Source: an uncultured Spirochaetales bacterium (lineage in GTDB: Bacteria > Spirochaetota > Spirochaetia > JAFGDJ01). Taken from it: a stretch of DNA of 64,000 nt. Below the pieces are notes generated by a model. That model was given only the letters and a program-made list of their open reading frames with translations, did no database searches and was not told the DNA's origin. Position 1 is the first letter of the stretch; every line of letters begins with the position of its first letter. Location of the stretch: the NCBI GenBank assembly GCA_964410865.1, contig CAYPIQ010000006.1:36865-100864 (forward strand), read 5' to 3'. The translations under genes and the position numbers were made by a program. Positions 4,737 to 62,115 of the stretch are shown one piece after another.

Positions 4737-4775
4737 ATCGGACTATTGTGATAACATAATGATGGGGGTGCATAC

Positions 4776-5459
4776 ATGAGATTCCGCAGCAGAGTAGTAT
4801 ACAGGGCCCTACGAAATGTCATATCCGTTGCCGCGAGAATTTTCCTCCGGGTGAAGGTCCGGGGAACGGAAAACCGCCCGCCCGGGGCAAAGATATACGC
4901 GGTGAACCATCCGACGGAGATAGACATGTTCCCGGTGTTCGTGTTTACCCGGGACTTTATCCATACGATGATCAATCCATACATCTTCGATATTCCCGTG
5001 CTTCGAACCATCCTGCGCCTGACCGAGCAGATCAAGATCCGCAGGACGATTCGGAAACATGAAACAATCGAAGAGGCCCGGCGAATCCTCCAGCGGGGAG
5101 AAGCCCTTCTCATTGCGCCCCAGGGCGCACGGGTGAAATTCGACGAATACCCGAGACCCAAGAAGGGAGTCGTGCGTCTCGCCCTGGAAAACCGGGTGCC
5201 CATCATTCCGGTAGGTATAGGCATTCCCCGGAACAAGATCCGGATCAAGAAGATATTCTTCAAGGAAGAAAAAGTATACCGTAACGCCTACTACCCGAGG
5301 TTCAGGGCCCCCTACGGTATCGTTTTCGGCAAGCCTATCTCCTTCGAAGGCTATTACGGGAAAAAGATCGACAAGGAGACAATGCAAAACCTGGCAAACA
5401 AGGTCATGGATGTCATCTACAGACTCCAGGGCGAAGCTGAAGAAATGCTGTCGAGCTGA
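4776..5459 (+). CDS. Lysophospholipid / 1-acyl-glycerol-3-phosphate acyltransferase family protein (PlsC-like)
   Basis: An HX4D acyltransferase motif 'NHPTEID' lies near the N-terminus, with a second conserved block 'LLIAPQGARV'; the length is 227 aa. Confidence 0.65.
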   Translation: MRFRSRVVYRALRNVISVAARIFLRVKVRGTENRPPGAKIYAVNHPTEIDMFPVFVFTRDFIHTMINPYIFDIPVLRTILRLTEQIKIRRTIRKHETIEEARRILQRGEALLIAPQGARVKFDEYPRPKKGVVRLALENRVPIIPVGIGIPRNKIRIKKIFFKEEKVYRNAYYPRFRAPYGIVFGKPISFEGYYGKKIDKETMQNLANKVMDVIYRLQGEAEEMLSS

Positions 5460-11745: not shown

Positions 11746-12342
11746 GTGCTCTGGCGAAACAGCGAATATATCAAGGATAACGAGATTAGCCTGGAGGCGA
11801 TGGATAAGGCTCTGGAGGATCTTCGGCGACGCGTGGGTGTTTCGACGGATAGGTATAATGATATTTTCCGGGCATATGCCCGGGATCATTTTTTACCTCT
11901 GCCCGGGGGTGCTTACCTGCGCCGGGATGAGCTGCAGGTAGTACCCGGAGTATTGTTTTTGTGGTCCTTCGGATGGAAGCTGAACGTTCTGTCCGCCGCC
12001 GAAGAGGAAGCGGTGACCCTGGGGTTAAGGGTTACCTTACTCAAGACGGTTCTCATGGGCCTGGCCGCGTATATAACTTCCCTCTGCGTTTCCGCCGTGG
12101 GGATTATCGCCTGGGTGGGGCTGATTATTCCCCATATTGCCAGGATGCTGATCGGTCCGGATCATCGGCGCCTTATACCCGCGGCTTCCCTCCTGGGAGC
12201 CGTGTTTATAGTATTCTGCGACACCCTTACCAGGGTACTTACCGACGGAGAGATACTAATTAGTATAATTACCGCGGTTACCGGCGCCCCGTATCTCTTC
12301 TTCCTGATACGAACCAACAGGAGAATCGGTTTTGCTTCATGA
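11746..12342 (+). pseudogene. C-terminal fragment of a FecCD-family (BtuC/FepD-like) ABC permease
   Basis: From about nt 11950 the translation matches the last third of FecCD permeases ('LNVLSAAEEEAVTLGLRV', 'GPDHRRLIPAASLLGAVFIVFCDTLTRVL', 'GAPYLFFLIR'). The N-terminal two thirds, an ATPase and a binding protein are absent, and the region upstream of about 11950 does not look permease-like. Confidence 0.55.
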
Positions 12343-27500: not shown

Positions 27501-28164
27501 TGGTCCCGCGGAGTGCGGGATTCTCCGGATTAAGCCCCCGCTTTCTGTGGGCTCGTACAAGGTCGTCGTCTATCATTTTACGAAGGACCGATTCGGGAAT
27601 TTCTTCGACCTTACTTATTTCATGGCTTATCCTGAAACCGTCGAAGAAATGTAAAAAGGGCACCCGCGACTTAAGAGTCGCAGCCTGGGAAATTAACCCG
27701 AGGTCCAGTACTTCCTGCACGGAATTGGAGGCAATAAGCCCGAATCCCGTGGACCGCGCCGCCATAACGTCGGAATGATCGCCGAAGATGGACAGGGCCT
27801 GGCAAGCCACTGACCTGGCGGCAATATGAAAGACCGTCGGGGTGAGTTCCCCGGCAATCTTGAACATATTGGGCAGCATCAGGAGAAGCCCCTGGGATGC
27901 GGTAAAGGTTGTTGTTAAAGCGCCGGTGGTCAGAGCACCGTGAACGGCGCCGGAAGCTCCGCCTTCCGATTGCATTTCGATAACATCCGGGATGGTGCCC
28001 CAGATGTTCTTTTTGCCCTGCGCGGAGTAGAGGTCTGCGAGTTCCCCCATGGGAGAAGAGGGGGTTATCGGATAAATAGCTATAACCTCGTTGGTTGGAT
28101 GAGCAACCATGGCAGCGGCAGTGTTCCCGTCAATTGTAATCATGTTTTTATCAGACATATTCAA
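24583..28164 (-). CDS. Pyruvate:ferredoxin (flavodoxin) oxidoreductase, single-chain PFOR/NifJ type
   Basis: A 1193-aa protein with conserved PFOR N-terminal ('IDGNTAAAMVAHPTNEVIAIYPITPSS'), two 4Fe-4S ferredoxin motifs ('CIQCGDCSTVCPHAVIR', 'CTGCGSCVNICPA') and the TPP-binding C-terminal domain ('GGDGWAYDIGYGGLDHV'). Confidence 0.95.
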   Translation of the reverse strand: MNMSDKNMITIDGNTAAAMVAHPTNEVIAIYPITPSSPMGELADLYSAQGKKNIWGTIPDVIEMQSEGGASGAVHGALTTGALTTTFTASQGLLLMLPNMFKIAGELTPTVFHIAARSVACQALSIFGDHSDVMAARSTGFGLIASNSVQEVLDLGLISQAATLKSRVPFLHFFDGFRISHEISKVEEIPESVLRKMIDDDLVRAHRKRGLNPENPALRGTSQNPDVFFAARETVNKYYLEAPKHVQDMMDRFASLTGRQYRLFDYLGAPDAERVVILMGSSADTVEETVEYLSGKGEKVGMIKVRLFRPFDTEALVAALPATAQKIAVLDRTKEPGALGEPLYEDVRTAVGEVMASGKAPFSDYPVIVGGRYGLGSNEFTAAMAISVFNNLKKESPMNHFTVGIHDDRTFTSLEWDKDLSIEPEDVHRAVFFGLGSDGTVSANKNSIKIIGKATENYAQGYFVYDSKKAGAMTTSHLRFGKRPIKSSYLIQKAQFVACHKFSFLEKYDMLKYADVGGVFLLNAPFGADEVWENIPVEVQQAIIDKKLRFYVIDAINIAQNIGLGGRINTIMQTAFFLISGILSEDKALELIRKSVEDTYGSKGSDIVKLNMDAIEAARTRIEEVNYPKETGGTIHMIPPVPDDAPDFVKEVTGEIIAFRGTEIPVSKLPEDGTYPTGTTKYEKRNIAENIPVWDPDTCIQCGDCSTVCPHAVIRMKVYDPKYLEDAPETFKSTDAKGKEFSGMKFTLQVAPEDCTGCGSCVNICPAYKKVNGEKTEEKAINMETQLPLRDQEVENWNYFLSIPNTDASLIKRHTTKGSQLLQPLFEFSGACAGCGETPYVKLLSQFFGDRAVIANATGCSSIYGGNLPTTPYTRREDGRGPAWSNSLFEDAAEFGMGMRLTADRMVTYSGELLDRLVSSKPKGIDTDLLKKIKDNPQKEQVEIENQRSWVDELKRQLEKSEDPDAAELLSVADYLIRRSVWILGGDGWAYDIGYGGLDHVLASGRNVNALVLDTGVYSNTGGQMSKATPMGATAKFAAAGKGVKKKDLGMMVMSYGYVYVAQVAMGYNRMQTIKAFLEAEAYDGPSLIIAYSHCINHGINMTLGMDQQKLAVNSGAWPLYRYNPDNLAEGKNPLTLDYKEPSVDIAEYMYNEIRFRGLKQSSPERAEMLLNKVRKDVKDQWETYKYLADRQY

Positions 28165-34317: not shown

Positions 34318-34330
34318 ACTCGTTCCTCCT

Positions 34331-34496
34331 GATTCGCACGGGGGATTCATACCCCGCGGCTTGCTGCTCTCTTTGTAGCCGAGCCGGCTGACTGCCTCGC
34401 CAATGGTTGCGGTACGGGGTATGAATCCCGTATACAATCCATACCTTGCAAAACCGACATACCCCGCCCCTTGGGACGGGGTATGTCGGTTTTTTA
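34331..34496 (+). repeat. Copy A of a roughly 165-nt structured intergenic repeat element
   Basis: It contains the long-range stem 'gggattcataccccg'/'cggggtatgaatccc', a constant core 'gccgagccggctgactgcctcgccaatggttgc' and a 3' hairpin 'cgacataccccgcccc-ttgg-gacggggtatgtcg' followed by TTTTTT. It is near-identical to the copies at 49150 and, in reverse orientation, 58737. Confidence 0.85.
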
Positions 34497-36434: not shown

Positions 36435-38153
36435 ATGAGTGAAAGAATACGTGAATTAATTGAAGAGATTTACGGGAAAGAACGGTCCGATGAGGTGTAC
36501 CGGCGGCTCATGGCGGGGATTAAAGAGCGGCTCGAGTCTATCGAACCTCCGGCGGTAAGAGGATCGGGGGATCTACCCTTGAGTGAGGAGGATGCCTTCG
36601 TCATCACCTACGGAGACCAGTTCAGGAAAGATAAGGCCGAGCCTCTGAAGGTCCTGGGCGAATTTGCGGGTCGGTTTCTTCAGGGGATTGTGTCCGGAAT
36701 CCATATCCTTCCGTTCTTTCCATACACCTCCGACGACGGTTTTTCCGTTTCCGATTACCGGCAGGTGAACCCGGCATGGGGCACCTGGGATGATATCCGG
36801 AGAATCGGCACAGAATTCAGATTGATGAGCGACCTGGTTTTGAACCACTGTTCGGTCTCCAACGAGTGGTTTAAGCGGTTTCTGAAAGGTGAAGGCAAGT
36901 ACGCCGATTATTTTATCACCGCGGATAAAGACGAAGACCTCTCCATGGTCGCCCGGCCGCGGGCCCTCCCGCTGCTCACCCCCTTCGAGACCCCCGGGAA
37001 AACCCTGTACGTGTGGACGACCTTCAGCGCGGATCAGGTGGATCTGAATTTCGGTTCTCCGGAGGTATTGATCGAGATGATAGACATATTCCTGTTCCAC
37101 GTCCGGAACGGAATACAGGTTATACGACTTGATGCCATTGCCTATCTATGGAAGGAACCCGGTCATTCCTGCATCCATCATCCGAAAACCCACGCGGTGG
37201 TAAAACTCTTCCGGGCCGTGGTGGACGAGTTTGTTCCCTGGGTGGTTATCATCACGGAAACCAATGTTCCCCACAGAGAAAATGTTTCCTATTTCGGAAA
37301 CGGAACAGATGAAGCCCATATGGTCTATCAGTTTGCCCTGCCGCCCTTGGTGCTGGACGCCTTTTTGAGGGAAGACGCCGGGCACTTGAGGGATTGGGCT
37401 GCAACCCTGCCACCACCCGACGGCCGGACAACGTATTTTAATTTCCTCGCTTCCCACGACGGCGTCGGTCTGCTCCCGGCCCACGGTATCCTGTCCGAAG
37501 AAGAACTGGAAGGGCTCATCAACAGCGTCAGGAACAGGGGAGGGCTTATCTCCTACAAGGCCGGTGCTTCCGGGAATATCCCCTACGAGATGAATATAAA
37601 CTACTGTGATGCCGTGGCCGAAACAACCTTACCCGTGGAAACCCGCGTACGAAAATTCCTCGCCTCCCAGGCCTTTCTGCTCATTATGCCCGGTGTGCCC
37701 GGAATCTACATTCATAGTATCATCGGGTCTGGAAACTGGAGGGAAGGTGTAGAAATAACCGGAATGAACAGGACCATCAATCGTCGGAAGCTCGATCTCG
37801 AAGAAACCTCCGCTGAACTGGAACGCAAAGGCAGCCTTCGAAACCTGGTGTATACGGGGTATGCCGCCATGCTCGAGGTCCGACGGACCCGGAGGGCCTT
37901 CCATCCCGCCGCGTCCTTCAGGATACTGCCGGCTGCAGGTCCGCTGTTTGCGGCGGAACGCGTCTCCCCGGAGGGCTCTGAGCGGCTGGTATGCGTGGTG
38001 AACACCTCCGGCGGCCGGGTGGAATACCCGATGCCGGCAGATTTCAAAGTGACGGCTGTGGCGGATATTCTTACCCTGCGGGAGATCCCACTATCCGCCG
38101 GGGGCACTGTTTCAGTGCCTCCCTACGGTGTACTGTGGCTGGAGGCTTTATAA
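36435..38153 (+). CDS. GH13 subfamily-18 glucoside phosphorylase (sucrose phosphorylase / glucosylglycerate phosphorylase-like)
   Basis: The blocks 'ILPFFPYTSDDGFSVSDYRQVNPAWGTWDD', 'DLVLNH' and 'RLDAIAYLWK' are present; the length is 572 aa. Confidence 0.8.
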   Translation: MSERIRELIEEIYGKERSDEVYRRLMAGIKERLESIEPPAVRGSGDLPLSEEDAFVITYGDQFRKDKAEPLKVLGEFAGRFLQGIVSGIHILPFFPYTSDDGFSVSDYRQVNPAWGTWDDIRRIGTEFRLMSDLVLNHCSVSNEWFKRFLKGEGKYADYFITADKDEDLSMVARPRALPLLTPFETPGKTLYVWTTFSADQVDLNFGSPEVLIEMIDIFLFHVRNGIQVIRLDAIAYLWKEPGHSCIHHPKTHAVVKLFRAVVDEFVPWVVIITETNVPHRENVSYFGNGTDEAHMVYQFALPPLVLDAFLREDAGHLRDWAATLPPPDGRTTYFNFLASHDGVGLLPAHGILSEEELEGLINSVRNRGGLISYKAGASGNIPYEMNINYCDAVAETTLPVETRVRKFLASQAFLLIMPGVPGIYIHSIIGSGNWREGVEITGMNRTINRRKLDLEETSAELERKGSLRNLVYTGYAAMLEVRRTRRAFHPAASFRILPAAGPLFAAERVSPEGSERLVCVVNTSGGRVEYPMPADFKVTAVADILTLREIPLSAGGTVSVPPYGVLWLEAL

Positions 38154-38204: not shown

Positions 38205-39479
38205 GTGAACGGAACAGGCAGACAGAGAAACATTGGATTTATATCCACCAGGTTTTCCGGGACCGACGGCGTAACCCTGGAGACAGCCAAATGGGAGCAA
38301 ATCTTTACGGAGTTCGGTCACCGCTGTTTCCGTTTCGCCGGGCTCCTGGACACCGACAACGGCCGATCCATGACGGTACCGGAGGCATTCTTCGGACATC
38401 CGGACAATCTCGCGCTCAATGAGCAGATCTTCGGCAGAAAGGTGAGGAGCCGGGAGGTCACCGACCGAATTTACTCCGTAAAGGAATACCTGAAGGAAAG
38501 GCTTTACGAGTTTATCCGATCCTTCTCGATAGACCTGCTGGTGGCCGAGAACTGCCTGGCTATTCCCATGCATATCCCCCTGGGGATCGCCCTGACGGAA
38601 GTCATCGCGGAAACGGGAATACCCGCCATTGGGCATCACCACGATTTCTGGTGGGAACGCAGTCGGTTTCTTATCAATGCCGTTCCTGAAATTATCGAGC
38701 AGTGCTTTCCACCCCGTCTACCGACCGTCCACCATGTGGTGATTAACTCGATGGTACAGTCCGAACTCGCCTCCCGCCGGGGCATGTCCGCTTCGGTTAT
38801 CTACAATGTCTTCGATTTCGACGCCGGGAAACCGGTACCCCGGGAAACGAACGAAGAATTCCGGAAGGATTTCGGATTCGATCCGGAGGATATCCTGATT
38901 CTACAGCCCACCAGGGTTGTGGCAAGAAAGGGGATCGAGCAGGCATTGCACCTGGTACAACAGTTGAAGCTGCCGAGGGCCAAGCTCCTGATCAGCCACT
39001 CCGTCGGTGACGAAGGCGACGCCTACCTGGACTGGATACTCGATATGGCCCGGCAGCAGCAGATAGACGTACATTTGCTCTACAACCGCCTGGACGAGAC
39101 CCGTCGGGTGGATGATAAGGGAAACCGCCTTTACTCACTCTGGGACGTATACCCCCATGTCGACCTGGTGACCTACCCCAGTCTTTATGAAGGATTCGGC
39201 AATGCCTTCCTGGAGGCGGTCTACTTTCAAAAACCCATCCTGGTAAACCGATACTCCGTCTATATAGTCGATATCGAACCGAGGGGGTTCGAGGTGGTTT
39301 CCATGGACGGATTCCTGACGCCGGATACAATCAACGCCGTTCGAAGAGTTCTGTCGGACCCGGAAAAACAGAGACGGATGACCGAACACAATTTCCAAAT
39401 TGCCCGGCGCTTTTTCTCTTACAGTGTGCTTAGAAAGAGACTCCAGAACATACTCTACGATTTTTTCGGAGGTCCGTAA
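38205..39479 (+). CDS. GT4-family (retaining) glycosyltransferase, uncharacterised subfamily
   Basis: N-terminal 'IGFISTRFSGTDGVTLE' and the C-terminal E-x7-E motif 'YPSLYEGFGNAFLEAVYFQKPILV' are present; the length is 424 aa. It is about 45% identical by eye to the 60814..62115 product. Confidence 0.65.
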   Translation: MNGTGRQRNIGFISTRFSGTDGVTLETAKWEQIFTEFGHRCFRFAGLLDTDNGRSMTVPEAFFGHPDNLALNEQIFGRKVRSREVTDRIYSVKEYLKERLYEFIRSFSIDLLVAENCLAIPMHIPLGIALTEVIAETGIPAIGHHHDFWWERSRFLINAVPEIIEQCFPPRLPTVHHVVINSMVQSELASRRGMSASVIYNVFDFDAGKPVPRETNEEFRKDFGFDPEDILILQPTRVVARKGIEQALHLVQQLKLPRAKLLISHSVGDEGDAYLDWILDMARQQQIDVHLLYNRLDETRRVDDKGNRLYSLWDVYPHVDLVTYPSLYEGFGNAFLEAVYFQKPILVNRYSVYIVDIEPRGFEVVSMDGFLTPDTINAVRRVLSDPEKQRRMTEHNFQIARRFFSYSVLRKRLQNILYDFFGGP

Positions 39480-45346: not shown

Positions 45347-45607
45347 ATGCCCAGAGGAGACGGAACAGGGCCTGCGGGACAGGGACCCGGAACAGGGAAA
45401 GGATTGGGAAGAAAACCCGGAGGCGGAGGCCGGGGACGTCATAGCGGAGGTGCTTTTGGTCCCGGCGGAATGTGTATATGCGCGAAATGCGGGACTAAAA
45501 TTCCTCATCAACAGGGAACATCATGTACGGAACTAAAGTGTCCGAATTGCGGGCAAACCATGATTCGCGAAGAGTTGCTCGAAGAAAAAAGAAAGAGAAA
45601 AGAATGA
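45347..45607 (+). CDS. DUF5320-family small glycine-rich protein
   Basis: 'MPRGDGTGPAGQGPGTGKGLG...GGMCICAKCG...CPNCG' followed by a coiled-coil tail matches DUF5320; the ATG at 45347 follows RBS 'aaaggag', and the ORF-track 5' extension is rejected. Confidence 0.75.
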   Translation: MPRGDGTGPAGQGPGTGKGLGRKPGGGGRGRHSGGAFGPGGMCICAKCGTKIPHQQGTSCTELKCPNCGQTMIREELLEEKRKRKE

Positions 45608-46473
45608 AAATCGCCATTGCCAGCGGGAAGGGTGGTACAGGAAAAACCACCCTTTCGGTAAACCTGGCGGCGTATCTCGCGGAGACCCGGCCGGTTATAT
45701 TAACCGATCTCGATGTGGAGGAGCCGAACTCGGGACTTTTTCTCAAAAAGGGGAGAGCTGAATTCCGAAAAGATGTATTCAGGATGGTCCCGTCATGGAA
45801 ACAGTCATCCTGTACCCTCTGCGGATTATGCCAGGAGGTGTGTAACTTCAATTCGATAATAAAAATGGGGGACGAGGTAATGATATTCCCCGAACTCTGC
45901 CATGGATGTTACGCCTGCAGCGAGCTCTGTCCGACGGATTCACTCCCCATGGTTCCGGAAAAAATCGGTGAATTGGCGAGTTATACGGCAGGCGATATTT
46001 CTTTTATCGACAGCCGACTCGATATCGGGCAGGAACAGGCGGTACCGCTGATTGCCGAGACACTCTCCTACGTGGAAGATGAATTCCCCCGGGATGTCCT
46101 TAAAATATATGACGCTCCGCCGGGTACGTCCTGCCCTGTTATAGAAGCGGTAAAGGACGCGGATTTTATTCTGCTTGTAACCGAGCCAACCCCCTTCGGG
46201 CTTCACGATCTCCGGCTTGCCCTCGAGACGGTCAGGAGCCTGGGAAAAAGATGCGCGGTTGTGGTCAACAGGTACGGTCTCGGGAATGCCGATGTCGATG
46301 AATACTGCCGGCGGGAAGGTATCGACATCGTGGCGAAGCTGCCGAACAGGCGGCAGGTGGCGGAGCTTTATTCCCGGGGAAGGCTTGTCTACCCGGAGGT
46401 GCCGGAGATTGCCGCGGAGCTGGAAAATTTAGCTGCGTATATCGACGGGCTGGAAAAGGAGATGCGGGGATGA
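45604..46473 (+). CDS. MinD/ParA-superfamily P-loop ATPase with an inserted 2x[4Fe-4S] ferredoxin domain (COG1149-like), copy 1
   Basis: The deviant Walker A 'ASGKGGTGKTT' and the ferredoxin insert 'CTLCGLCQEVCNFNSI...CHGCYACSELCPTDS' are present; the start overlaps the upstream stop (ATGA). Confidence 0.85.
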   Translation: MKIAIASGKGGTGKTTLSVNLAAYLAETRPVILTDLDVEEPNSGLFLKKGRAEFRKDVFRMVPSWKQSSCTLCGLCQEVCNFNSIIKMGDEVMIFPELCHGCYACSELCPTDSLPMVPEKIGELASYTAGDISFIDSRLDIGQEQAVPLIAETLSYVEDEFPRDVLKIYDAPPGTSCPVIEAVKDADFILLVTEPTPFGLHDLRLALETVRSLGKRCAVVVNRYGLGNADVDEYCRREGIDIVAKLPNRRQVAELYSRGRLVYPEVPEIAAELENLAAYIDGLEKEMRG

Positions 46474-47357
46474 AAGAGATTGTCGTGATTTCCGGCAAAG
46501 GCGGAACCGGCAAAACCTCGGTGACGGCTTCTTTTTCAGTACTCGCAGGCCCCGAGGTGATAACCGCTGATTGTGATGTGGATGCGGCGGATATGCATCT
46601 GCTTTTACAGCCGGATTTCGCCGAAGCCCATGATTTCTTCAGCGGCCTGAAAGCCCGTATCGATGCTTTACAGTGTTCGGGCTGCGGGAGGTGTGCGGAG
46701 GTCTGTCGTTTCGGAGCCGTGGACCTAGTCGATGATGTGTATTCAGTCGTTTCCCTGGATTGTGAAGGCTGCGGATACTGCGCCCGGATCTGTCCGGAGA
46801 AGGCTATAGTTATGGAAGAGCAGAACGTCGGAGAGTGGTATCGGTCGTCCATTAAAACCGCCGGTATAATGATCCACGCTCGTCTCGGCATAGGCGCGGA
46901 CAATTCCGGAAAACTTGTAGCCAAGGTGAAAAACGAGGCAAAACGGGTAGCGGAAGAAACAGGTAAGAATATCGTCCTTGTAGACGGATCGCCGGGTATC
47001 GGATGCCCGGTGGTCTCCTCTCTTTCGGGGGCCGATTTTGTTGTATTTGTTACTGAACCGACGGTATCCGGTCTCCATGATGTTAAACGGGTTCATGAGG
47101 TGGTAAAGAACTTCGATATCCCTTCGGGATGCATCATAAATAAAGCCGATTTGAATCCGGAGATAACAGGGCAGTTGAAGGATTTTTTTGCCGAAGAAGG
47201 CATTGTCCATCTTGCCGACCTCCCCTATGACGAAAGCTTTACGGAAGCGATGGTCATGGGCCAAACGATTGTGGAATTCGCCGGCGGCAGACTCACCTCG
47301 GAGATCTCCGCATGCTGGCAGCGTATAAAAACTATAGTTCATACAAAAGGAGAATGA
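46470..47357 (+). CDS. MinD/ParA-superfamily P-loop ATPase with an inserted 2x[4Fe-4S] ferredoxin domain, copy 2
   Basis: 'ISGKGGTGKTS' with the insert 'CSGCGRCAEVCRFGAV...CEGCGYCARICPEKA'; the start overlaps the upstream stop (ATGA). Confidence 0.85.
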   Translation: MKEIVVISGKGGTGKTSVTASFSVLAGPEVITADCDVDAADMHLLLQPDFAEAHDFFSGLKARIDALQCSGCGRCAEVCRFGAVDLVDDVYSVVSLDCEGCGYCARICPEKAIVMEEQNVGEWYRSSIKTAGIMIHARLGIGADNSGKLVAKVKNEAKRVAEETGKNIVLVDGSPGIGCPVVSSLSGADFVVFVTEPTVSGLHDVKRVHEVVKNFDIPSGCIINKADLNPEITGQLKDFFAEEGIVHLADLPYDESFTEAMVMGQTIVEFAGGRLTSEISACWQRIKTIVHTKGE

Positions 47358-47360
47358 TAT

Positions 47361-47699
47361 ATGAGGATTGCTTTCACCAGTAAAGGCGCCGGGCCGGATT
47401 CAGCGATAGATCCGCGGTTCGGAAGAACGGAGTATATTCTACTCTACGATGAAGAGAAGGACGAGTATACTCCTGTGGATAACCGGGCGATAGGCGGGGT
47501 CGCCCACGGGGCCGGGCCTCAGACAGCCCAAAAATTGTTTGACCTCCAGCCGGATGTACTCATTACCGGCAATGGACCGGGGGGGAATGCAGCCGCCGCT
47601 CTGCAAAAGGCAAACCTGGATATATATACCGGAGCCGGGCAGATGACCGTTAAACAAGCCTATGATGCATATAAAAAAGGTGAACTGAAAAAGTTTTAG
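47361..47699 (+). CDS. NifX/NafY-type FeMo-cofactor-biosynthesis-domain protein, copy 2
   Basis: 'MRIAFTSKGAGPDSAIDPRFGRTEYILLYDEEKDEYTPVDNRA...LQPDVLITGNGPGGNA' matches the NifX-family pattern; it is 112 aa and starts 3 nt after the upstream stop. Confidence 0.75.
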   Translation: MRIAFTSKGAGPDSAIDPRFGRTEYILLYDEEKDEYTPVDNRAIGGVAHGAGPQTAQKLFDLQPDVLITGNGPGGNAAAALQKANLDIYTGAGQMTVKQAYDAYKKGELKKF

Positions 47700-47775
47700 T
47701 AGTTTCGTTAGACACGCCGGCGGCTTGACCGGCTGCCGGTATGTCGTTCCAGCGGTTGTAGAAGAGGAGGCTCCT

Positions 47776-48723
47776 GTGTATTCATATTTATTCGGTCCGG
47801 TCCCTTCCCGGCGCCTAGGCATGTCCCTCGGCGTTGATCTGGTTCCACACAAGGTATGCACCTTCAACTGTGTATACTGCGAGTGCGGCAGGACAACCCA
47901 TTTGACCAGGCAACGGGATGAATACGTTCCGGTTAATGCCGTGATGGAAGAATTGGGGCGGTTTTTTATCGATAATCCGAAACCGGATTATGTCACTTTT
48001 TCAGGAGCCGGTGAACCAACATTGAACTCCGGGATCGGTACGGTGCTCGACTTTATCAAAACCGAACACGAGGGTATGCCCGTGGCGGTGCTTACCAATG
48101 GAAGTCTGCTCTCGGATCCGGAAGTGCGGTCGGAGATCCTGGCTGCCGATGTTGTTCTGCCATCGCTGGATGCGGCTTCGGAGTCGACCTTCCGCAGGCT
48201 GGACAGACCAGTCCACAGTATCGTTCTGTCTGAGTACATTCAAGGCCTTGTTGATTTCAGGGAGGAATACGCGGGCAGAATATGGCTCGAGGTAATGATG
48301 CTGCCGGGTTATAACGACAACCCGGATGATCTCAGGTTACTGAAGGAAGCGTTTTTGAGAATACGGCCCGATCTTATACAGCTCAATACCCTTGACAGAC
48401 CCGGCACGGTGAAGGACCTCCGGCCTGCGTCACGGGAGGACCTGGAACGGATTATCGATACCTGGGCATTGGACAATGTAGAGATCATCGCCGCGGCGCC
48501 GGAACGAAAGAATATTCAGTCATACAGAAAAGATACGGAGACGGCGATCCTCGAGACCATTGCCAGGCGGCCCTGCACTCTCGAGGACCTCGGCAGTATT
48601 CTCGGCACCCATATTAACGAAGTCAATAAGTATCTCGGTGTTCTCGAGGAAGAAGGGAAAATAGAGACCCTGCGTCAGGAAAGAGGTGTGTTTTACCAGC
48701 TGAAAAAAAACCACCGGGCGTGA
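47776..48723 (+). CDS. Radical SAM protein with a C-terminal winged-helix-like tail
   Basis: The N-terminal 'YLFGPVPSRRLGMSLGVDL' is followed by 'CTFNCVYCECG' (CxxxCxxC); the GTG start at 47776 sits 6 nt after 'GAGGAGG', and the ORF-track 5' extension is rejected. Confidence 0.7.
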   Translation: MYSYLFGPVPSRRLGMSLGVDLVPHKVCTFNCVYCECGRTTHLTRQRDEYVPVNAVMEELGRFFIDNPKPDYVTFSGAGEPTLNSGIGTVLDFIKTEHEGMPVAVLTNGSLLSDPEVRSEILAADVVLPSLDAASESTFRRLDRPVHSIVLSEYIQGLVDFREEYAGRIWLEVMMLPGYNDNPDDLRLLKEAFLRIRPDLIQLNTLDRPGTVKDLRPASREDLERIIDTWALDNVEIIAAAPERKNIQSYRKDTETAILETIARRPCTLEDLGSILGTHINEVNKYLGVLEEEGKIETLRQERGVFYQLKKNHRA

Positions 48724-49149: not shown

Positions 49150-49323
49150 ATGTACATATGATTCGCACGCGGGATCCATACCCCGCGGCTTGCCGCGCTC
49201 TTCGGAACCGAGCCGGCTGACTGCCTCGCCAATGGTTGCTGTACGGGGTATGAATCCCGCATACAATCCATACCTTGCAGAACCAACATACCCCCGCCCC
49301 TTGGCGCCGGGGTATGTTGATTA
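49150..49323 (+). repeat. Copy B of the roughly 165-nt structured repeat element
   Basis: It is near-identical to copy A with scattered substitutions and one indel. Confidence 0.85.
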
Positions 49324-49337
49324 TTAGTGACTATAAA

Positions 49338-50306
49338 TTACTTTAATTCGTCCTGCCGGGCAAGAATTGTCTGTAACCAGGTTATAAATTTTCCAACGAA
49401 GGACCACTGTATACGTTCTCTTGTTGTATGAACATCGAAAAGATTCGGGCCCATGGATACGGCTTCGATTCCGCCGGCTTTCGCGGAAAGAATACCGCAC
49501 TCCAGGCCTGCATGAACGGTTACAATTTCTACCGGTTCAGTAAAGATGCCCTCTCTGCAGCTCCGGCAGAGTGATACGAGGCGGGACCCAGGGGCGGGGG
49601 GCCAGGGAGGGTAGGTGGTTGTGTTGGAGACGTGCAGACCCGCGCGCCCGATGAGTTCCTTGATGTTCCTTTCGCCCTCGTCGAGTTCTTCCTGTTGATC
49701 CGAACGGAGGCTTATTTCCAGGTGGGTATTGTTCAGACCGTCGACCCTCAGGACACCGGGGTTGGCCGAGGTACTTACCTGGCCGCCCATCTCTTCATTT
49801 CTCCTCAGGACACCGGCCGGCAGATTCAGGATGAGGTCCGGCAGGGTTTTGAGGCCCTGGTCTGTAAGGGCTCCGACCCTGGCGGTATCTGTTTTTGTGA
49901 GTGATATCCGGGGGGTTGAATCGGGATTGGAATAGATATCGTTGAACTCTTTTTCGAAACGCCGGTAGAGTGGTAAGAGGAGCTTTTCCCCCTCCTCCGG
50001 TATAAAGAAGGTGACGGTGCAGTTGGTCGGGATTGCATTTATCTTTCCTTCGCCCTTAATATCGGTAACCGCAGGTTTCAAGTCGGAAAGACCGGAAAGA
50101 AAAGAAGCAAAGCGACGGTACAGATTCTCAGGACTTGTCCCGATATCCATGCCGGAATGGCCGCCTTTGAGCCCGTCGGCGGTTATATAGTCTCCCTCCC
50201 GCAAGGGGATGACGGGGTCTTTAGTAAAATCATGGGAAGAACCGGTATCTTTAACGCACACCATGTCCAGGTGTCCCTGAAGGATAACGGCGGGGGCATC
50301 TTCCAT
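49338..50306 (-). pseudogene. pepD: Aminoacyl-histidine dipeptidase (PepD, M20 family) remnant lacking the N-terminus and with a large internal deletion
   Basis: 'ILQGHLDMV...HDFTKDPV' and the C-terminal 'HAGLECGIL...SMGP...HTTRERI' match PepD, but roughly 130 aa between 'KDPV...' and 'LKGGHSG' are missing and the N-terminal roughly 70 aa are absent. Confidence 0.6.
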
Positions 50307-56237: not shown

Positions 56238-57092
56238 CTAGGGCTTTAGTTCGATCTCTTCGTCTATTAATGAACAGGTGTCTTCATCACAGGCTATGAG
56301 AGAAAGGGAGCAGGTTACAACGGGGGCTTGTGCAGCCTCCCCGGAAAGGAGGAATTCCATTGTCATGGTCTGCCCCTCCTGGATGCCATGAAAGGAATAC
56401 TCCTCCGGTTCAACGGTCAGACTGCTGCCGGCGTTGATTGTAACGGTCAGGGGGGGGTATCCGGGTCCGTTCAGATGAAAACCCTCCTTCGGCGCCAGCC
56501 CTAGGGTAATAACCGATCCGCCGTAGACATGGTCGGCAAAGGTATACACCAGGGTATATCGTGGTTGTTCGATAACCGAATCGATCTGTTCCATGGTATC
56601 GTCGGCGGAAGCCAAATGATATTCTAACCGTTCAGCGAAAAAATCGTAGTCTCGTTTACCTTCTATTTTCTCTACCACCACTCCGTCCTTAATAATAAAG
56701 GTGGTCGGATATCCGATGATCTTTTCATTGTTGAAAAAGGCTTCCGCGCCGTACAGGATGGGGTAAGTGACTCCCAGGGATGCGGCGATTTTTTCCACCA
56801 GATCCTTCTTATCCTCCGGATCCGTATTTACACCAAGGATCAGTACATCCCTGTCCCGGTAGGTGTCGTACAGCCTCGACAGGTCAATCATTTCTTTTTT
56901 ACAGGGCGCGCAAAAACTCGCCCAGTAGTTGAGTACAACAAGATCGTACGAACCGGTGCTGTAGTAGTCTGAAACGTGCTTACCTGTGTAGTTCTCCATG
57001 GTGACAGGTGTTGTCTCCGGGTTGTTTTCAGATCGGCCTGAACAACCGAACAACAGTATACCGGCGGCAATAAGAAGAGTGAGTCTTTTCAT
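56238..57092 (-). CDS. Lipoprotein fusing a TlpA/ResA-like thioredoxin domain to a DsbD-N-terminal (nDsbD)-like domain
   Basis: The lipobox 'LLFGCSG' is followed by the thioredoxin 'WASFCAPCKKE' (CxxC) and a C-terminal region with the Cys pair 'TCSLSLIACDEDTC'. The start CAT at 57090-57092 has RBS AGGAAG and overlaps the upstream gene stop (ATGA). Confidence 0.65.
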   Translation of the reverse strand: MKRLTLLIAAGILLFGCSGRSENNPETTPVTMENYTGKHVSDYYSTGSYDLVVLNYWASFCAPCKKEMIDLSRLYDTYRDRDVLILGVNTDPEDKKDLVEKIAASLGVTYPILYGAEAFFNNEKIIGYPTTFIIKDGVVVEKIEGKRDYDFFAERLEYHLASADDTMEQIDSVIEQPRYTLVYTFADHVYGGSVITLGLAPKEGFHLNGPGYPPLTVTINAGSSLTVEPEEYSFHGIQEGQTMTMEFLLSGEAAQAPVVTCSLSLIACDEDTCSLIDEEIELKP

Positions 57093-58033
57093 GGTGATTT
57101 CTTCCTGGTCTTTATTGTTTTTATCTGTACTGTTTCCCTTCCGGAAAAGGTGATGCAGTGTACCGGGCAGACCCGGACACAATCGAGGCACCGGATGCAC
57201 TCTCTGCTGTTCGGTGTGCTCCGGACCGGAATATTCATGGGGCAGACTTCTTCGCATTTTCCGCACTGGATGCACTTTCCCGTATCCACCGAGATCTGCA
57301 GAAAACTGAGCTTATTGAACAGGCCCCAGTAAGCCCCCAGGGGACACATGATTTTGCAGAAGGACCTGCGTGAAAACAGGAAACTGATGAGAAATACTAC
57401 TAAAATAGATATTTTTAATACGGTAAGCCCCGACGCGGCCTGCCTCAGACCCTCATCCACCGCCAGCAGGGGAATACCGGCGGTGAGTGTACCCGCAGGG
57501 CATATCCATTTACAGAACCAGGGTCCAATATATCGTATATCGGTAATAAACAAAGGCAGAACTATGACGAACAGTACGAGGACCGGGTATTTTACATATG
57601 TGAGGATGCGGGGGAGGGGAATGTTTTTCGAGGTAATTCTGTTGATGAGATCCTGGATAAAACCGAAAGGGCAGACCCATCCGCAGAAAAATCTGCCCGT
57701 GGTAATACCTATCAGGGTGAGAAACCCGATGATATAAAAACCGGCATAGTTTAATCGTTCTTTCAGGCGAATCCGTTCGTTTACGTCGTTCAGCCAGAAT
57801 TGTAGTGAACCCAGGGGACATGAAAGCACAGACATGGGACATGAATAGCAGTGAAGCCCCGGAAGACAGAACTGTTTCGATGAAAACTGGCTTATAAGGG
57901 CTTTGTTCCGACGTATGGATTCCAGGAAAGTTGCAATATCCAGGTTGATGAGGGCGAAAGAAGCCGCCTGAATGAGTAATCTGAAGCGAATCAGCTTGTT
58001 TCTGAATGGAGTTTTCATCCTAGGCCTATACAT
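57089..58033 (-). CDS. NapH/MauN-like integral-membrane ferredoxin (two CX3CP motifs plus two [4Fe-4S] motifs)
   Basis: 'FFCGWVCPFG' and 'FCKWICPAG' are CX3CP motifs, and 'CIQCGKCEEVCP' and 'CIRCLDCVRVCP' are 4Fe-4S motifs; four transmembrane helices are visible. Confidence 0.7.
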   Translation of the reverse strand: MYRPRMKTPFRNKLIRFRLLIQAASFALINLDIATFLESIRRNKALISQFSSKQFCLPGLHCYSCPMSVLSCPLGSLQFWLNDVNERIRLKERLNYAGFYIIGFLTLIGITTGRFFCGWVCPFGFIQDLINRITSKNIPLPRILTYVKYPVLVLFVIVLPLFITDIRYIGPWFCKWICPAGTLTAGIPLLAVDEGLRQAASGLTVLKISILVVFLISFLFSRRSFCKIMCPLGAYWGLFNKLSFLQISVDTGKCIQCGKCEEVCPMNIPVRSTPNSRECIRCLDCVRVCPVHCITFSGRETVQIKTIKTRKKSP

Positions 58034-58211
58034 TCGTAACAGAGGTTAATGGCTTTCCGCAGGATTCCTTCTACCAGGTCTCCCTGCCAAAGACCGAAAA
58101 CCAGCAGTAGAATCGAGACAATGAAAATACCGTACCGTAATATATTCTTCATCCCGGTTAAATTACCATATAACTTTTTCTTTATACAAGAGAAAAACAG
58201 TTCTGTTTGCC

Positions 58212-58736
58212 CTACATAACTTCCAGGGTGCCCGTCTTCTTTGCTCTTACCTCGAACCGTCGGAAGAGAGAATAGCCCATGAGAAGGTAGAGGGTCCCGA
58301 CCAGGAGTTCTTTGAGCGGTAGAATGCCGACCTGTCCGGATGCGGCGCCTTCGGATATTATAAGCCGGGCTGCGGCGATGCCGTGGGAGAGGGGAAGAAA
58401 GGAGGATGCATCCCTGATCCATCCGGGTAGATCGCTCAGGGGCACATTAGCCCCGGAGAAGAGCAGGAGGAGAAAATATACAGTATTGTTTACGAACATC
58501 ACGTTGCGGGTTATCAGGCCGATGCAACCCATCAACAGCCCCAGCCCGGAGGTGCTGAAAACCGAAACCAGAACAGCCAGGGACAGCATTCCCAGCCGGT
58601 CCGAGGGTATATGCAGGCCGAAAAGGATAATGCCCCAGGTAAAGGCAATGGCCACCCCCATCATCTTGAACGCGAGATCCGTGGAAGGTCGAAACCGGCG
58701 GAACAGCGCGCGGTTATCAAAAAAATCGAGAAAATC
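58212..58736 (-). pseudogene. C-terminal portion of an ABC-2-type permease whose 5' end is replaced by repeat element copy C
   Basis: Four transmembrane helices ('MMGVAIAFTWGIILFGL...', 'LSLAVLVSVFSTSGLGLLMG') match the C-terminal half of ABC-2 permeases; the ORF-track N-terminus 'MQNQHTPPLGAGYV' is a translation of the repeat. Confidence 0.5.
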
Positions 58737-58893
58737 AACATACCCTGCCCCAAGGGGCGGGGTATGTTGGTTCTGCAAGGTATGGATTTTATGCGGGATT
58801 CATACCCCGTACCGTAACGGTTGTCGAGGCAGTTAGCCGGCTCGGCTCCGAAGAGCGCGGCAAGCCGCGGGGTATGAATCCCGCGTGCGAATC
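58737..58893 (-). repeat. Copy C of the roughly 165-nt structured repeat element (reverse orientation)
   Basis: It is the reverse complement of copies A and B: 'aacataccctgccccaaggggcggggtatgttgg...ccggctcggctcc...ccgcggggtatgaatcccgcgtgcgaatc'. Confidence 0.85.
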
Positions 58894-59001
58894 ATCCACC
58901 GGGTCGGGAGAGAGTGGTTTAATTGTAACGGTCATATTAACCTTCCGCCCTATAGAATTATTCCCCCCGGGTCCGTTGGATGGACCCGGGAGGTAGGCCC
59001 T

Positions 59002-60281: not shown

Positions 60282-60845
60282 TCATTGAAAGGATTCGCCT
60301 GTGAAAACACCCGGCTGGGGGAATCTCGGCGAGGGAGCGGGAAACAAGCCCGTCAGGGGAAGCCAATACCCCGGCAAGGCTATTTGGTCCCGGAGACTTG
60401 CAGCGCACGTCACGGCGGAGGTCCGTTCACCCCTGTACAAGGATCCCATGGAACGGACCGCATTCAGGGAAAGGTCCGGATCCGGCAGGGTATATAACCG
60501 GTTGAGGATCTCCCGCTCCGGCCGGACAATACCTGCCAGGTATACAGGTCGGCCTTCCCTTAGCTGACTGAGCATTCGGCGGGCATGCTGTTCGGCCTCG
60601 TTCTTATTCATGATAAGACCGAAGATCCTGTTGATCTCCACATCCGGCCGCCGGCCCTTTACCTCCTGATAGTAATATTCGATTGGATAGACGCCCTTAC
60701 TTTCATCATCCCGGTAGACCGCCGAGGTGGGCAGGGTTTTGAGCACCCCATCGCAGAATCGGGCTGCAGTATCGTAGTTTAGTTTGACGGGGTTGAAGAT
60801 GTATTCCGCCGGGTCACTCCAGCAGGATCTTGGTTCTAAATGCAT
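60282..60845 (-). CDS. Hypothetical protein (no recognisable motif)
   Basis: A 187-aa ORF of protein-like composition that overlaps the 3' end of the upstream GT4 paralog by 32 nt; the function is unknown. Confidence 0.35.
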   Translation of the reverse strand: MHLEPRSCWSDPAEYIFNPVKLNYDTAARFCDGVLKTLPTSAVYRDDESKGVYPIEYYYQEVKGRRPDVEINRIFGLIMNKNEAEQHARRMLSQLREGRPVYLAGIVRPEREILNRLYTLPDPDLSLNAVRSMGSLYRGERTSAVTCAASLRDQIALPGYWLPLTGLFPAPSPRFPQPGVFTGESFQ

Positions 60846-62115
60846 CGGTGGCTTCCTTGCCCCAGAAGGTAGTTATAAGGTGATACAGCTTGGCTTCGAG
60901 TATCTGGAACGAATAATACTGCAGGCCGAGGTTATAATTCTTCTCGGTAATCTCCTGCACGCGCCGGGGGTTTTTTAAGAGTTCCCGGGTGTAATCCACC
61001 GTGCTCTTGGATATATACCCGTCCATTTCGATTACCTGAAATCCCTTTGGTTTTATATCATGAGAATAGATCGAGTAGTTGTTTACAAGGATCGGCTTAC
61101 GGAAATAGATGGCCTCCAGAAAGGCGTTTCCGAATCCCTCGAATATAGAAGGGTAGGTCACCAGGTCGGCATGGGGATAAATATCCTGCATGGTGTACAC
61201 CTTTTTACCGTCCGGGGTCGTTCCCCTCTCGTTGTCGATACGGTTTTCTACAAAGATCGATTTTATACCCAGAAGATCGCTGTATTCCCGCACCCTTTGT
61301 TCATACTCAAACCCTTCGTCACCGGAGGCGTGGGATATTACCAGTACAGCGCTCATGTCGAGGCGTGCTACGAGTTCTATGGCATGTTCAATGCCCTTGC
61401 GTTGAACAACCCGGGTAGGCTGCAGGATCAGCAGCTGGTCTTTATCGATACCGAGTTCTTCCCGCACGTCCGCGTTATACTCGTCGATATAGTTGGTTGG
61501 GCGCTCGAAGGGCATAACGTTTGGTATGAGGGTTGAAGAGATCCCGGTGCGAAGGGCAAGCTGGTTCTGGGCCGAAGAATTTATGACGACATGTCGAATC
61601 GAATTAAGGTGAGGCGGATAACTGGAATTAAAATAATCCCAGACACAGTTTCTCAGGAAACGCTTGCGCTCCCAGAAAAAATCGTGATGATGGGCTATAG
61701 TGGGGATTCCGCTCTCGGCTATGACCTCGGTTAATGCCAGGCCCAGGGGTATGTTGAGCGGGATCGTCAGCGTATTCTGGGGGACCAGGAGGTCTATATT
61801 GAAGGTGTTGATAAAATCGTAAATCTTCTTTTTCAGGATTTCACGGTACGTATGGATAAGGGTAGTTATTTCAGCGGGCCGCCTTTCGAAATCGAAGGCA
61901 GCCTGGCAAATTCTGTTCAGATCGGGAATGTCCGGAGTCTTGAAGTGGGCTTCCGGTACTGTGAACGATTTCTCCGGGGGAGTATCCAGCTCTCCGGCCA
62001 TATAGAAGCAGGGGAAACCGTTGGCTTCCAGTACTTCGGCCCATTTTTTTGTTTCCAGGGAAACGCCGTCGGTCCCCGAAATCCTGAATGAAAGAAAACC
62101 TACATTCTTGCTCAT
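60814..62115 (-). CDS. GT4-family glycosyltransferase, paralog of the 38205..39479 gene
   Basis: 'VGFLSFRISGTDGVSLETKKW' and 'YPSIFEGFGNAFLEAIYFRKPILVNNY' are co-linear with the 38205 product. Confidence 0.65.
   Translation of the reverse strand: MSKNVGFLSFRISGTDGVSLETKKWAEVLEANGFPCFYMAGELDTPPEKSFTVPEAHFKTPDIPDLNRICQAAFDFERRPAEITTLIHTYREILKKKIYDFINTFNIDLLVPQNTLTIPLNIPLGLALTEVIAESGIPTIAHHHDFFWERKRFLRNCVWDYFNSSYPPHLNSIRHVVINSSAQNQLALRTGISSTLIPNVMPFERPTNYIDEYNADVREELGIDKDQLLILQPTRVVQRKGIEHAIELVARLDMSAVLVISHASGDEGFEYEQRVREYSDLLGIKSIFVENRIDNERGTTPDGKKVYTMQDIYPHADLVTYPSIFEGFGNAFLEAIYFRKPILVNNYSIYSHDIKPKGFQVIEMDGYISKSTVDYTRELLKNPRRVQEITEKNYNLGLQYYSFQILEAKLYHLITTFWGKEATDAFRTKILLE

Follow-up and report, generated by a model that had tools for sequence, protein, structure and literature searches.

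A NapH-like iron-sulfur protein, a CD1871A peptide and an exported thioredoxin as a candidate route for envelope disulfide reduction in anaerobic bacteria

Can electrons reach the periplasmic thiol-disulfide chemistry of a bacterium without passing through DsbD or CcdA? The question is raised by a locus in a 64,000-nucleotide stretch of DNA (the window, hereafter) from an uncultured Spirochaetales bacterium (GenBank assembly GCA_964410865.1, contig CAYPIQ010000006.1), in which a membrane iron-sulfur (Fe-S) protein, A, is encoded next to a lipoprotein, B, with a thioredoxin domain. Judging from their sequences and those of their relatives, we consider it moderately probable that A, B and a small membrane peptide, C, constitute one membrane-bound electron-transfer module that would connect the cytoplasm to periplasmic thiol-disulfide chemistry, a functional analogue of DsbD/CcdA assembled from different parts.

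Inspection of open reading frames (ORFs) shows that the minus strand from 56238 to 58152 consists of three consecutive coupled genes in the order C-A-B. Gene C (58152..58015) encodes a 45-residue CXXC membrane peptide of the CD1871A family (MKNILRYGIFIVSILLLVFGLWQGDLVEGILRKAINLCYECIGLG), gene A (58018..57089) a 309-residue NapH-like Fer4_5 Fe-S membrane protein, and gene B (57092..56238) a 284-residue lipoprotein in which a thioredoxin domain is followed by a DsbD_N-like immunoglobulin (Ig)-like domain. The stop codon of A (TGA, 57091..57089) overlaps the start codon of B (ATG, 57092..57090) in the tetranucleotide ATGA, and B begins MKRLTLL. A sequence-only reading of this DNA had already drawn attention to that overlap, and both ORFs lie on the minus strand where it had placed them. 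It described two coupled genes, however; the coupling of A to B stands, but gene C (58152..58015) had been overlooked. The TGA that ends C overlaps the second methionine codon of A (ATG, 58018..58016), again as ATGA. The ORFs containing A and B are 57089..58033 (314 residues) and 56238..57275, respectively. Since gene callers use the second methionine in identical and 95%-identical copies of A, translation likely begins there (58018), giving 309 residues. A scan for promoters and terminators returned counts within about two standard deviations of shuffled controls and identified no convincing operon boundaries.

The peptide encoded by C matches the NCBIfam model NF040920, "CD1871A family CXXC motif-containing protein," at 41.9 bits where the cut-off is 32 (E = 6.7e-11). 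It consists of the N-terminal segment MKNILRYG, one transmembrane (TM) helix and then KAINLCYECIGLG, ending in LCYECIGLG, so that the CXXC motif is placed four residues before the C-terminus. Among the related loci whose gene calls were checked, the CD1871A gene is uncalled in L001 and L082 and called in L083; in L082 the missing ORF is located at 4926..5069. Because gene callers skip the gene in loci of this kind, the family is probably under-counted in databases. NCBI has curated CD1871A as a small-protein family, and part of the pattern is to this extent already recognized in annotation.

Protein A matches Pfam Fer4_5 (PF12801) in three stretches (E = 6e-24; 84.2 bits against a gathering score of 22) as well as Fer4, Fer4_7 and Fer4_10, the last three through its C-terminal 4Fe-4S motifs. 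About four TM helices are followed by a C-terminal ferredoxin-like domain with two [4Fe-4S] motifs. Reading from the N-terminus (all coordinates minus strand), the cysteines fall into a four-cysteine motif, CX5CX2CPX5CP (CLPGLHCYSCPMSVLSCP; residues 51-67, 57818..57868; C51, C57, C60 and C67), in a predicted outer loop; CX3CP-1 (CGWVCP; residues 112-117, 57668..57685; C112/C116), within a Fer4_5 stretch at the predicted cytoplasmic end of TM2; CX3CP-2 (CKWICP; residues 169-174, 57497..57514; C169/C173), after TM3 and predicted to be on the outer side or re-entrant; CX3CP-3 (CKIMCP; residues 221-226, 57341..57358; C221/C225), at the predicted cytoplasmic end of TM4; and two CX2CX2CX3CP [4Fe-4S] motifs (residues 249-285, 57164..57274) in the predicted cytoplasmic ferredoxin-like domain.

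The sequence-only reading took A for a protein with the NapH/MauN hallmark, having two CX3CP motifs and two 4Fe-4S motifs. The 4Fe-4S part of that description is right, but there are three CX3CP motifs, and the name itself could not be sustained. NapH models are the best NCBIfam matches to A, yet A scores 81.9 bits with TIGR02163 (cut-off 213.05) and 75.1 with the NapH equivalog NF007013 (cut-off 234); relatives from other phyla score 68-78 and 58-64 bits. Both models align to A only from residue 105-106 on, which places the four-cysteine motif outside the region shared with NapH. Measured against the NapH/MauN motif pattern (two CX3CP, two [4Fe-4S], about four TM helices), A has more than is called for, namely the third CX3CP and the CX5CX2CX6C motif. 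In a profile search of the PDB only profile positions ~228-297 found matches, to polyferredoxins and 2x[4Fe-4S] ferredoxins, and no solved structure matched the membrane part. The model for CcoG gave 17.5 bits against a cut-off of 317. The operon is flanked by the remnant of an ABC-2 permease gene, a 3-hydroxyisobutyrate-dehydrogenase-like gene and an unassigned ORF, and neither napG/napA nor mau genes occur in these flanks or among the neighbors of 80 related loci. On its motifs and model scores, A is best described as NapH-like, not as NapH.

These 80 loci were obtained by scanning one genome per species for the A family and keeping the best 80 of more than 567 confirmed loci; with the locus of the window they make a set of 81. 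The family is large and well conserved, with 40-60% identity across phyla. Among the best 80 loci its hosts include Lachnospiraceae, Oscillospiraceae, Christensenellales, Peptostreptococcus, Syntrophomonadaceae and Treponema/Spirochaetaceae, together with Acidobacteriota/Aminicenantes, Desulfo-lineages (Deltaproteobacteria), Actinomycetota, Cloacimonadota, Poribacteria, Stahlbacteria and Hydrothermota; a homolog was also seen in one Asgard archaeon. In some sources relatives carry the name "ferredoxin-type protein NapH." Of the 18 cysteines of A, 17 are kept in 80-81 of the 81 aligned homologs and C169 in 75. CX3CP-1 and CX3CP-3 are invariant (81/81), C173 is likewise present in all 81, and the cysteines of the four-cysteine motif are found in 80-81. 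Given this conservation across 81 homologs, the cysteines of A are not there by chance.

The partners of A are conserved as well. In 76 of the 81 loci the gene directly preceding A is a CD1871A gene, and its product always ends C-x-x-C-[IVLM]-G-[ILV]-[GFVE], mostly with GIG or GLG. A TlpA/ResA-like thioredoxin is linked to A, by which we mean encoded within 400 nucleotides of it or fused to it, in 51 of the 81 loci: 34 upstream and seven downstream on the same strand, one convergent and nine fused, so that 50 of the 51 share the strand of A. Clustering of the neighbors in the 80 related loci revealed no other conserved neighbor; there was no cluster of CcdA/DsbD, ResBC, Msr or peroxiredoxin, and metal-transport or chaperone genes did not recur. 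The full-length partner thioredoxins all begin with an N-terminal signal or anchor, about half of them with a clear lipobox. CxPC predominates at the active site, most often as CGPC, and some sites are atypical (CTYC, CTAC and CGSC). The best family matches of these partners are ResA, TlpA, DsbE and StoA. The order C-A-B is kept amid unrelated flanks in L082 and L083, where B is 34-38% identical.

A is often joined covalently to a thioredoxin. The best matches of one such fusion comprise at least 120 clusters at 90% identity, all of them full-length Fer4_5 + Fer4 + thioredoxin proteins that public sources name merely "4Fe-4S binding protein." Oscillospiraceae-type loci with an A-TM-thioredoxin fusion have a second fusion, in which CD1871A is attached C-terminally to a four-TM protein that belongs to no Pfam family (L044, L046, L059, L067, L069, L072, L078 and L080, just upstream of A at ~4000-5000), and the entire system is then reduced to two proteins. 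The sequence-only reading had proposed that A is functionally paired with an exported thioredoxin, and the 51 linked loci, the fusion clusters and the conserved gene order together back this proposal strongly. In the Lachnospiraceae locus L079 the partner lipoprotein (3899-4828) is a fusion of rhodanese and thioredoxin, a further lineage-specific output domain on the thioredoxin.

In the window the partner is B. Its lipoprotein signal peptide (residues 1-17, 57042..57092, minus strand; MKRLTLLIAAGILLFGC) ends in the lipobox LLFGC with Cys17, and G16 and C17 are nearly invariant among 13 homologs. A thioredoxin fold of the TlpA/ResA type follows (residues ~30-160, 56613..57005, minus strand), with the active site CAPC at C61-A-P-C64 (56901..56912, minus strand), in which C61, P63 and C64 are invariant among the same 13 homologs. 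These 13 are the full-length relatives of B that were found, and where named they are called "TlpA family protein disulfide reductase." Pfam matches above cut-off are AhpC-TSA (52.9 bits, 4e-14), Redoxin (44.7) and Thioredoxin (34.4). Against the NCBIfam models B scores 62.5 bits for ResA (cut-off 170), 41.9 for StoA (210), 35.7 for TlpA (230) and 22.1 for DsbE (123), and because all four scores are under cut-off, we place B as a TlpA-like protein outside these named subfamilies. The AlphaFold2 model of B has a mean predicted local distance difference test (pLDDT) score of 80, and a Foldseek search with it finds structures of ResA, StoA, FetE and DsbE at target-normalized TM-scores of 0.58-0.72. 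A role in cytochrome c maturation, as for ResA, was considered and rejected, as neither ResB/ResC nor CcdA occurs among the neighbors in the 80 loci.

Residues ~172-284 of B (56241..56579, minus strand) form a predicted Ig-like beta-sandwich with an invariant cysteine pair, C268-x4-C273 (56274..56291, minus strand), in the last beta-hairpin; modelled alone, the domain has a pLDDT of 89.9. The sequence-only reading described it as a DsbD-N-like domain with its cysteine pair. No direct match bears this out: DsbD_N (PF11412) did not match B in a Pfam search at E <= 0.1, nor the C-terminal domains alone of 10 family members at E <= 10, and in a PDB sequence profile search with the domain the best match, ScsB-alpha (E = 0.75), was non-significant. 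Through intermediates, however, the connection can be made, and with the cysteines aligned. Searched with a profile of the domain, 1.84 billion representatives yield only 48 proteins, from which we judge the family to be rare; among the 48 are stand-alone secreted proteins of ~125-190 residues. Two of these stand-alone proteins, P0171 (1.6e-9) and P0181 (2.2e-5), clear the PF11412 cut-off of 25 bits, with scores of 26.6 and 25.6 over model positions 11-116 of 119, and others fall just under. When the set built on the B domain is compared with the DsbD_N set by hhalign, the probability is 98.6% (E = 7e-16) and the cysteine pairs coincide, IACDEDTC with AICNESSC. Fold searches with the domain alone point to an Ig fold of a generic kind, and the matches include nDsbD and ScsB, though not at the top; those with full-length B are dominated by the thioredoxin domain and DipZ and are uninformative for the Ig domain. 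We conclude from this transitive evidence that the C-terminal domain is probably a divergent member of the DsbD_N superfamily. It is absent from the thioredoxin partners in the other 80 loci, and is thus a rare, lineage-specific addition that stands outside the general module. The gene of one stand-alone DsbD_N-like relative, P0151, adjoins no C, A or thioredoxin gene and is uninformative.

The DsbD/CcdA domain (PF02683) is absent from the 12 of 13 selected ORFs in the window (at least 90 residues, at least two predicted TM helices) that were run through Pfam, and the "PC" TM motif is lacking in the thirteenth (36435..38153) and in the remaining selected ORFs. The multi-TM ORFs of the window include MMPL, cardiolipin-synthase-like, FecCD (fragment), ATP-binding cassette (ABC) exporter, DUF2812, GtrA, ABC-2 and chromate transporter (two halves) proteins, among others. 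The claim of the sequence-only reading that no DsbD TM domain or CcdA is present therefore holds within the 64,000 nucleotides, by Pfam and by the motif, and neither protein is encoded by a conserved neighbor in the 80 related loci.

The fusions also provide a guide to topology. Between the ferredoxin-like domain and the thioredoxin of A-TM-thioredoxin fusions come a linker rich in lysine and arginine and then one extra TM helix, which should put the Fe-S domain and the thioredoxin on different sides of the membrane, and since the stand-alone partner thioredoxins are exported, the Fe-S domain should be cytoplasmic, as is likewise reported for NapH. A protein of five TM helices has CD1871A as its last helix in 13 loci; its loop charges put the C-terminal CXXC outside, and the N-terminus of the stand-alone C peptide, which bears lysine and arginine, agrees with this orientation by the positive-inside rule. 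Hydropathy and charge averaged over the family fit a four-TM A with its N-terminus inside, and the N-terminal extension of A in L017 has a loop of positive charge at its end, ahead of TM1. We predict from these features that CX3CP-1 and CX3CP-3 are at the inner face, adjoining the ferredoxin-like domain, and that the four-cysteine motif and CX3CP-2 are at the outer face, alongside the CXXC of CD1871A and the thioredoxin.

With the parts so arranged, a path for electrons can be sketched, in which we infer the donor, the substrates and the direction in which electrons move. A low-potential cytoplasmic donor would reduce the two [4Fe-4S] clusters of A. Reduced ferredoxin is the likely candidate, because a pyruvate:ferredoxin oxidoreductase is encoded in the window; many hosts of the module are fermentative anaerobes. 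The electrons would then cross the membrane by way of the ten further conserved cysteines of A, which, like the two of C, could be either additional Fe-S ligands or redox-active disulfides; NQR/RNF provide a precedent for an intramembrane Fe-S cluster. The outward CXXC of CD1871A would probably act at the outer face, and the CAPC of the thioredoxin domain of B would be reduced next. In this lineage only, B might pass the electrons from CAPC to the CX4C of the fused DsbD_N-like domain, much as DsbD passes them from gamma to alpha, and this domain would in turn reduce substrates in the envelope. The reducing character of the module is suggested by its partners, since CxPC/CGPC active sites and resemblance to ResA, TlpA, DsbE and StoA all point to reducing pathways. 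A broader reading follows the same lines, and we offer it tentatively, at a little under an even chance: CD1871A and the Fer4_5 protein may be a widespread, so far uncharacterized kind of transmembrane disulfide reductase that belongs to anaerobic bacteria and perhaps to some archaea as well, and in which Fe-S clusters, probably fed by ferredoxin, replace the cysteine relay of DsbD/CcdA and keep exported thioredoxins reduced, the window holding an uncommon form that has also acquired a DsbD_N-like adaptor domain.

Several observations weigh against such a module and bear on its rivals. In 30 of the 81 loci there is no adjacent thioredoxin, and for this reason the core role of the C-A pair may need none. 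The assignment of the C-terminal domain of B to DsbD_N is transitive, and its fold match is generic. The putative outer loop of A is fairly basic (3.9 lysines and arginines per sequence), and our only grounds for putting the four-cysteine motif and CX3CP-2 on that side are hydropathy, charge and the fusions. Fe-S clusters at the outer face of a multi-pass protein would, moreover, be hard to assemble. The most serious alternative takes up the first of these points: the primary job of C and A would be a different one, such as the reduction or handling of metal in the manner of CcoG, to which A is related through Fer4_5, or delivery to some other acceptor on the outer side, and the thioredoxin would have the accessory task of keeping the outward-facing cysteines of A and C reduced or serviced. 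We regard this as unlikely, given that the thioredoxin is the sole conserved neighbor of the pair, that it is so commonly joined to A covalently, and that genes for metal transport or chaperones do not recur nearby.

The linkage data are silent on direction, and the same proteins might be run in reverse, in an oxidizing pathway like that of DsbB or VKOR, with the exported thioredoxin accepting electrons from envelope thiols and A passing them to an acceptor in the cytoplasm or the membrane. Proteins of the NapH type do exchange electrons with the quinone pool, as is established for NapGH, and active sites such as CTYC, CTAC and CGSC are atypical. Yet the partners resemble ResA, TlpA, DsbE and StoA and not DsbA, CGPC and other CxPC sites predominate, and DsbD_N-like domains are known from reducing pathways only; the hosts are anaerobic, many of them fermentative, and ferredoxin-type clusters have low potentials. 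An oxidizing role thus seems improbable to us. That A is simply a NapH/MauN quinol dehydrogenase subunit among unrelated neighbors would accord with its best NCBIfam models and with the name given to some relatives, but it is contradicted by scores, motifs and surroundings and we give it very little credence: 82 and 75 bits are far short of the 213 and 234 that the models demand, and the same is true of relatives; A has the extra CX3CP and the four-cysteine motif; and instead of nap or mau flanks there is a conserved linkage to CD1871A and a thioredoxin. A reducing module remains the reading that we prefer.

How would such a module compare with systems already described? To our knowledge, the characterized reducing routes to bacterial envelope thioredoxins all use the cysteine relay of DsbD, CcdA or ScsB, fed by cytoplasmic thioredoxin. 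The predicted module resembles these systems in that an extracytoplasmic thioredoxin of the TlpA/ResA type receives the electrons and in that its predicted role is to supply reducing power to the envelope, and the thioredoxin of B, with a DsbD_N-like Ig domain whose cysteine pair sits in the last hairpin, mirrors the gamma-to-alpha arrangement of DsbD. It differs from DsbD/CcdA in having no PF02683 protein in the operon, in the window or beside the 80 related loci, and its membrane step would be made by a Fer4_5 Fe-S protein and a 45-residue CXXC peptide. Unlike DsbD, it would likely draw on an Fe-S or ferredoxin-type carrier and not on cytoplasmic thioredoxin, and in B the thioredoxin precedes the Ig-like domain, both in one soluble lipoprotein. 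The chemistry needed between A and C or B is that of ferredoxin:thioredoxin reductase and of HdrB/HdrD, in which a [4Fe-4S] cluster drives two one-electron reductions of a disulfide; those enzymes, however, are soluble or peripheral, and no sequence relation was found.

On its membrane side the module is closest to NapH, NosR and PceC, with which it shares the Fer4_5 membrane domain, CX3CP motifs and two cytoplasmic [4Fe-4S] motifs. As in NapH-like systems, the pairing is modular, the extracytosolic partner being a redox carrier whose gene is close by or fused, and proteins of this kind have been proposed to serve as modular transmembrane electron conduits to FMN (flavin mononucleotide)-binding extracytosolic domains (Meheust et al. 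2021, eLife, PMC8238504). The same study treats thioredoxin-like carriers as DsbD-dependent and lists no thioredoxin output for NapH-like proteins (PMC8238504). The module would differ from these systems in its output, a thioredoxin as against an FMN-binding domain or NapG, and A differs from NapH, NosR and PceC in its third CX3CP, its N-terminal four-cysteine motif and its near-universal CD1871A partner. The cupric reductase CcoG (FixG/RdxA) has neither a thioredoxin nor a CD1871A partner, and its model matches A weakly; the Ig-like domain of B, for its part, has a conserved cysteine pair and a profile link to DsbD_N. We found no paper on CD1871A, on a system of NapH-like protein and thioredoxin, or on this module, and a 2026 review on disulfide maintenance cites only DsbB, DsbD and CcdA as membrane enzymes. 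With a NapH-like conduit and what would be a DsbD-type output, the module has a fair chance, we suggest, of representing a distinct class of envelope reductase.

The rest of the window has features of its own. A structured repeat of ~165 nucleotides is present three times, its copies sharing 88-92% identity, at 58733-58895 (plus strand), 49158-49322 and 34330-34493 (both reverse). It contains the internal inverted repeats ACATACCCCG...CGGGGTATGT and GGATTCATACCCCG...CGGGGTATGAATCC and looks like an intergenic element of the MITE (miniature inverted-repeat transposable element) or REP (repetitive extragenic palindromic) kind; an Rfam scan of the window, the repeat included, gave no matches. One copy takes in the 5' end of the ABC-2 permease ORF (58212-58778, minus strand) just upstream of the operon, which matches Pfam positions 103-209 of 211 only and is probably a truncated remnant. 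The name-giving CD1871A of C. difficile likewise has an ABC permease, CD1871, as its neighbor (PMC11326576); we judged the association to be coincidental because ABC genes are not conserved neighbors elsewhere. A 322-residue ORF without a Pfam match (49338-50306, minus strand) adjoins another copy of the repeat and is apparently truncated, as is a FecCD permease fragment (11746-12342, plus strand) that covers model positions 185-310 of 311 only.

A pyruvate:ferredoxin oxidoreductase and a cluster encoding two MinD/ParA-like ATPases with 4Fe-4S inserts, a NifX-like protein (PF02579) and a radical SAM protein are accounted for by 24583-28164 (minus strand) and 45523-48723 (plus strand), a gene content consistent with an Fe-S-rich anaerobe. 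Two ORFs of ~425-433 residues, at 38205-39479 (plus strand) and 60814-62115 (minus strand), show clear N-terminal similarity to each other (GFISTRFSGTDGVTLETAKWEQ against GFLSFRISGTDGVSLETKKWAEV) and look to be paralogs; the latter, the only one of the pair that was run through Pfam, matches Glycos_transf_1.

If the module works as we suspect, a ferredoxin-tied Fe-S route would be a second, mechanistically different solution to the problem of keeping envelope thioredoxins reduced. It would explain the many "TlpA family" lipoproteins and the "4Fe-4S binding protein" fusions of gut and sediment anaerobes, and it would give a function to CD1871A, a small family often skipped by gene callers. In a larger context, the concept of the NapH-like conduit would gain a third class of output carrier.

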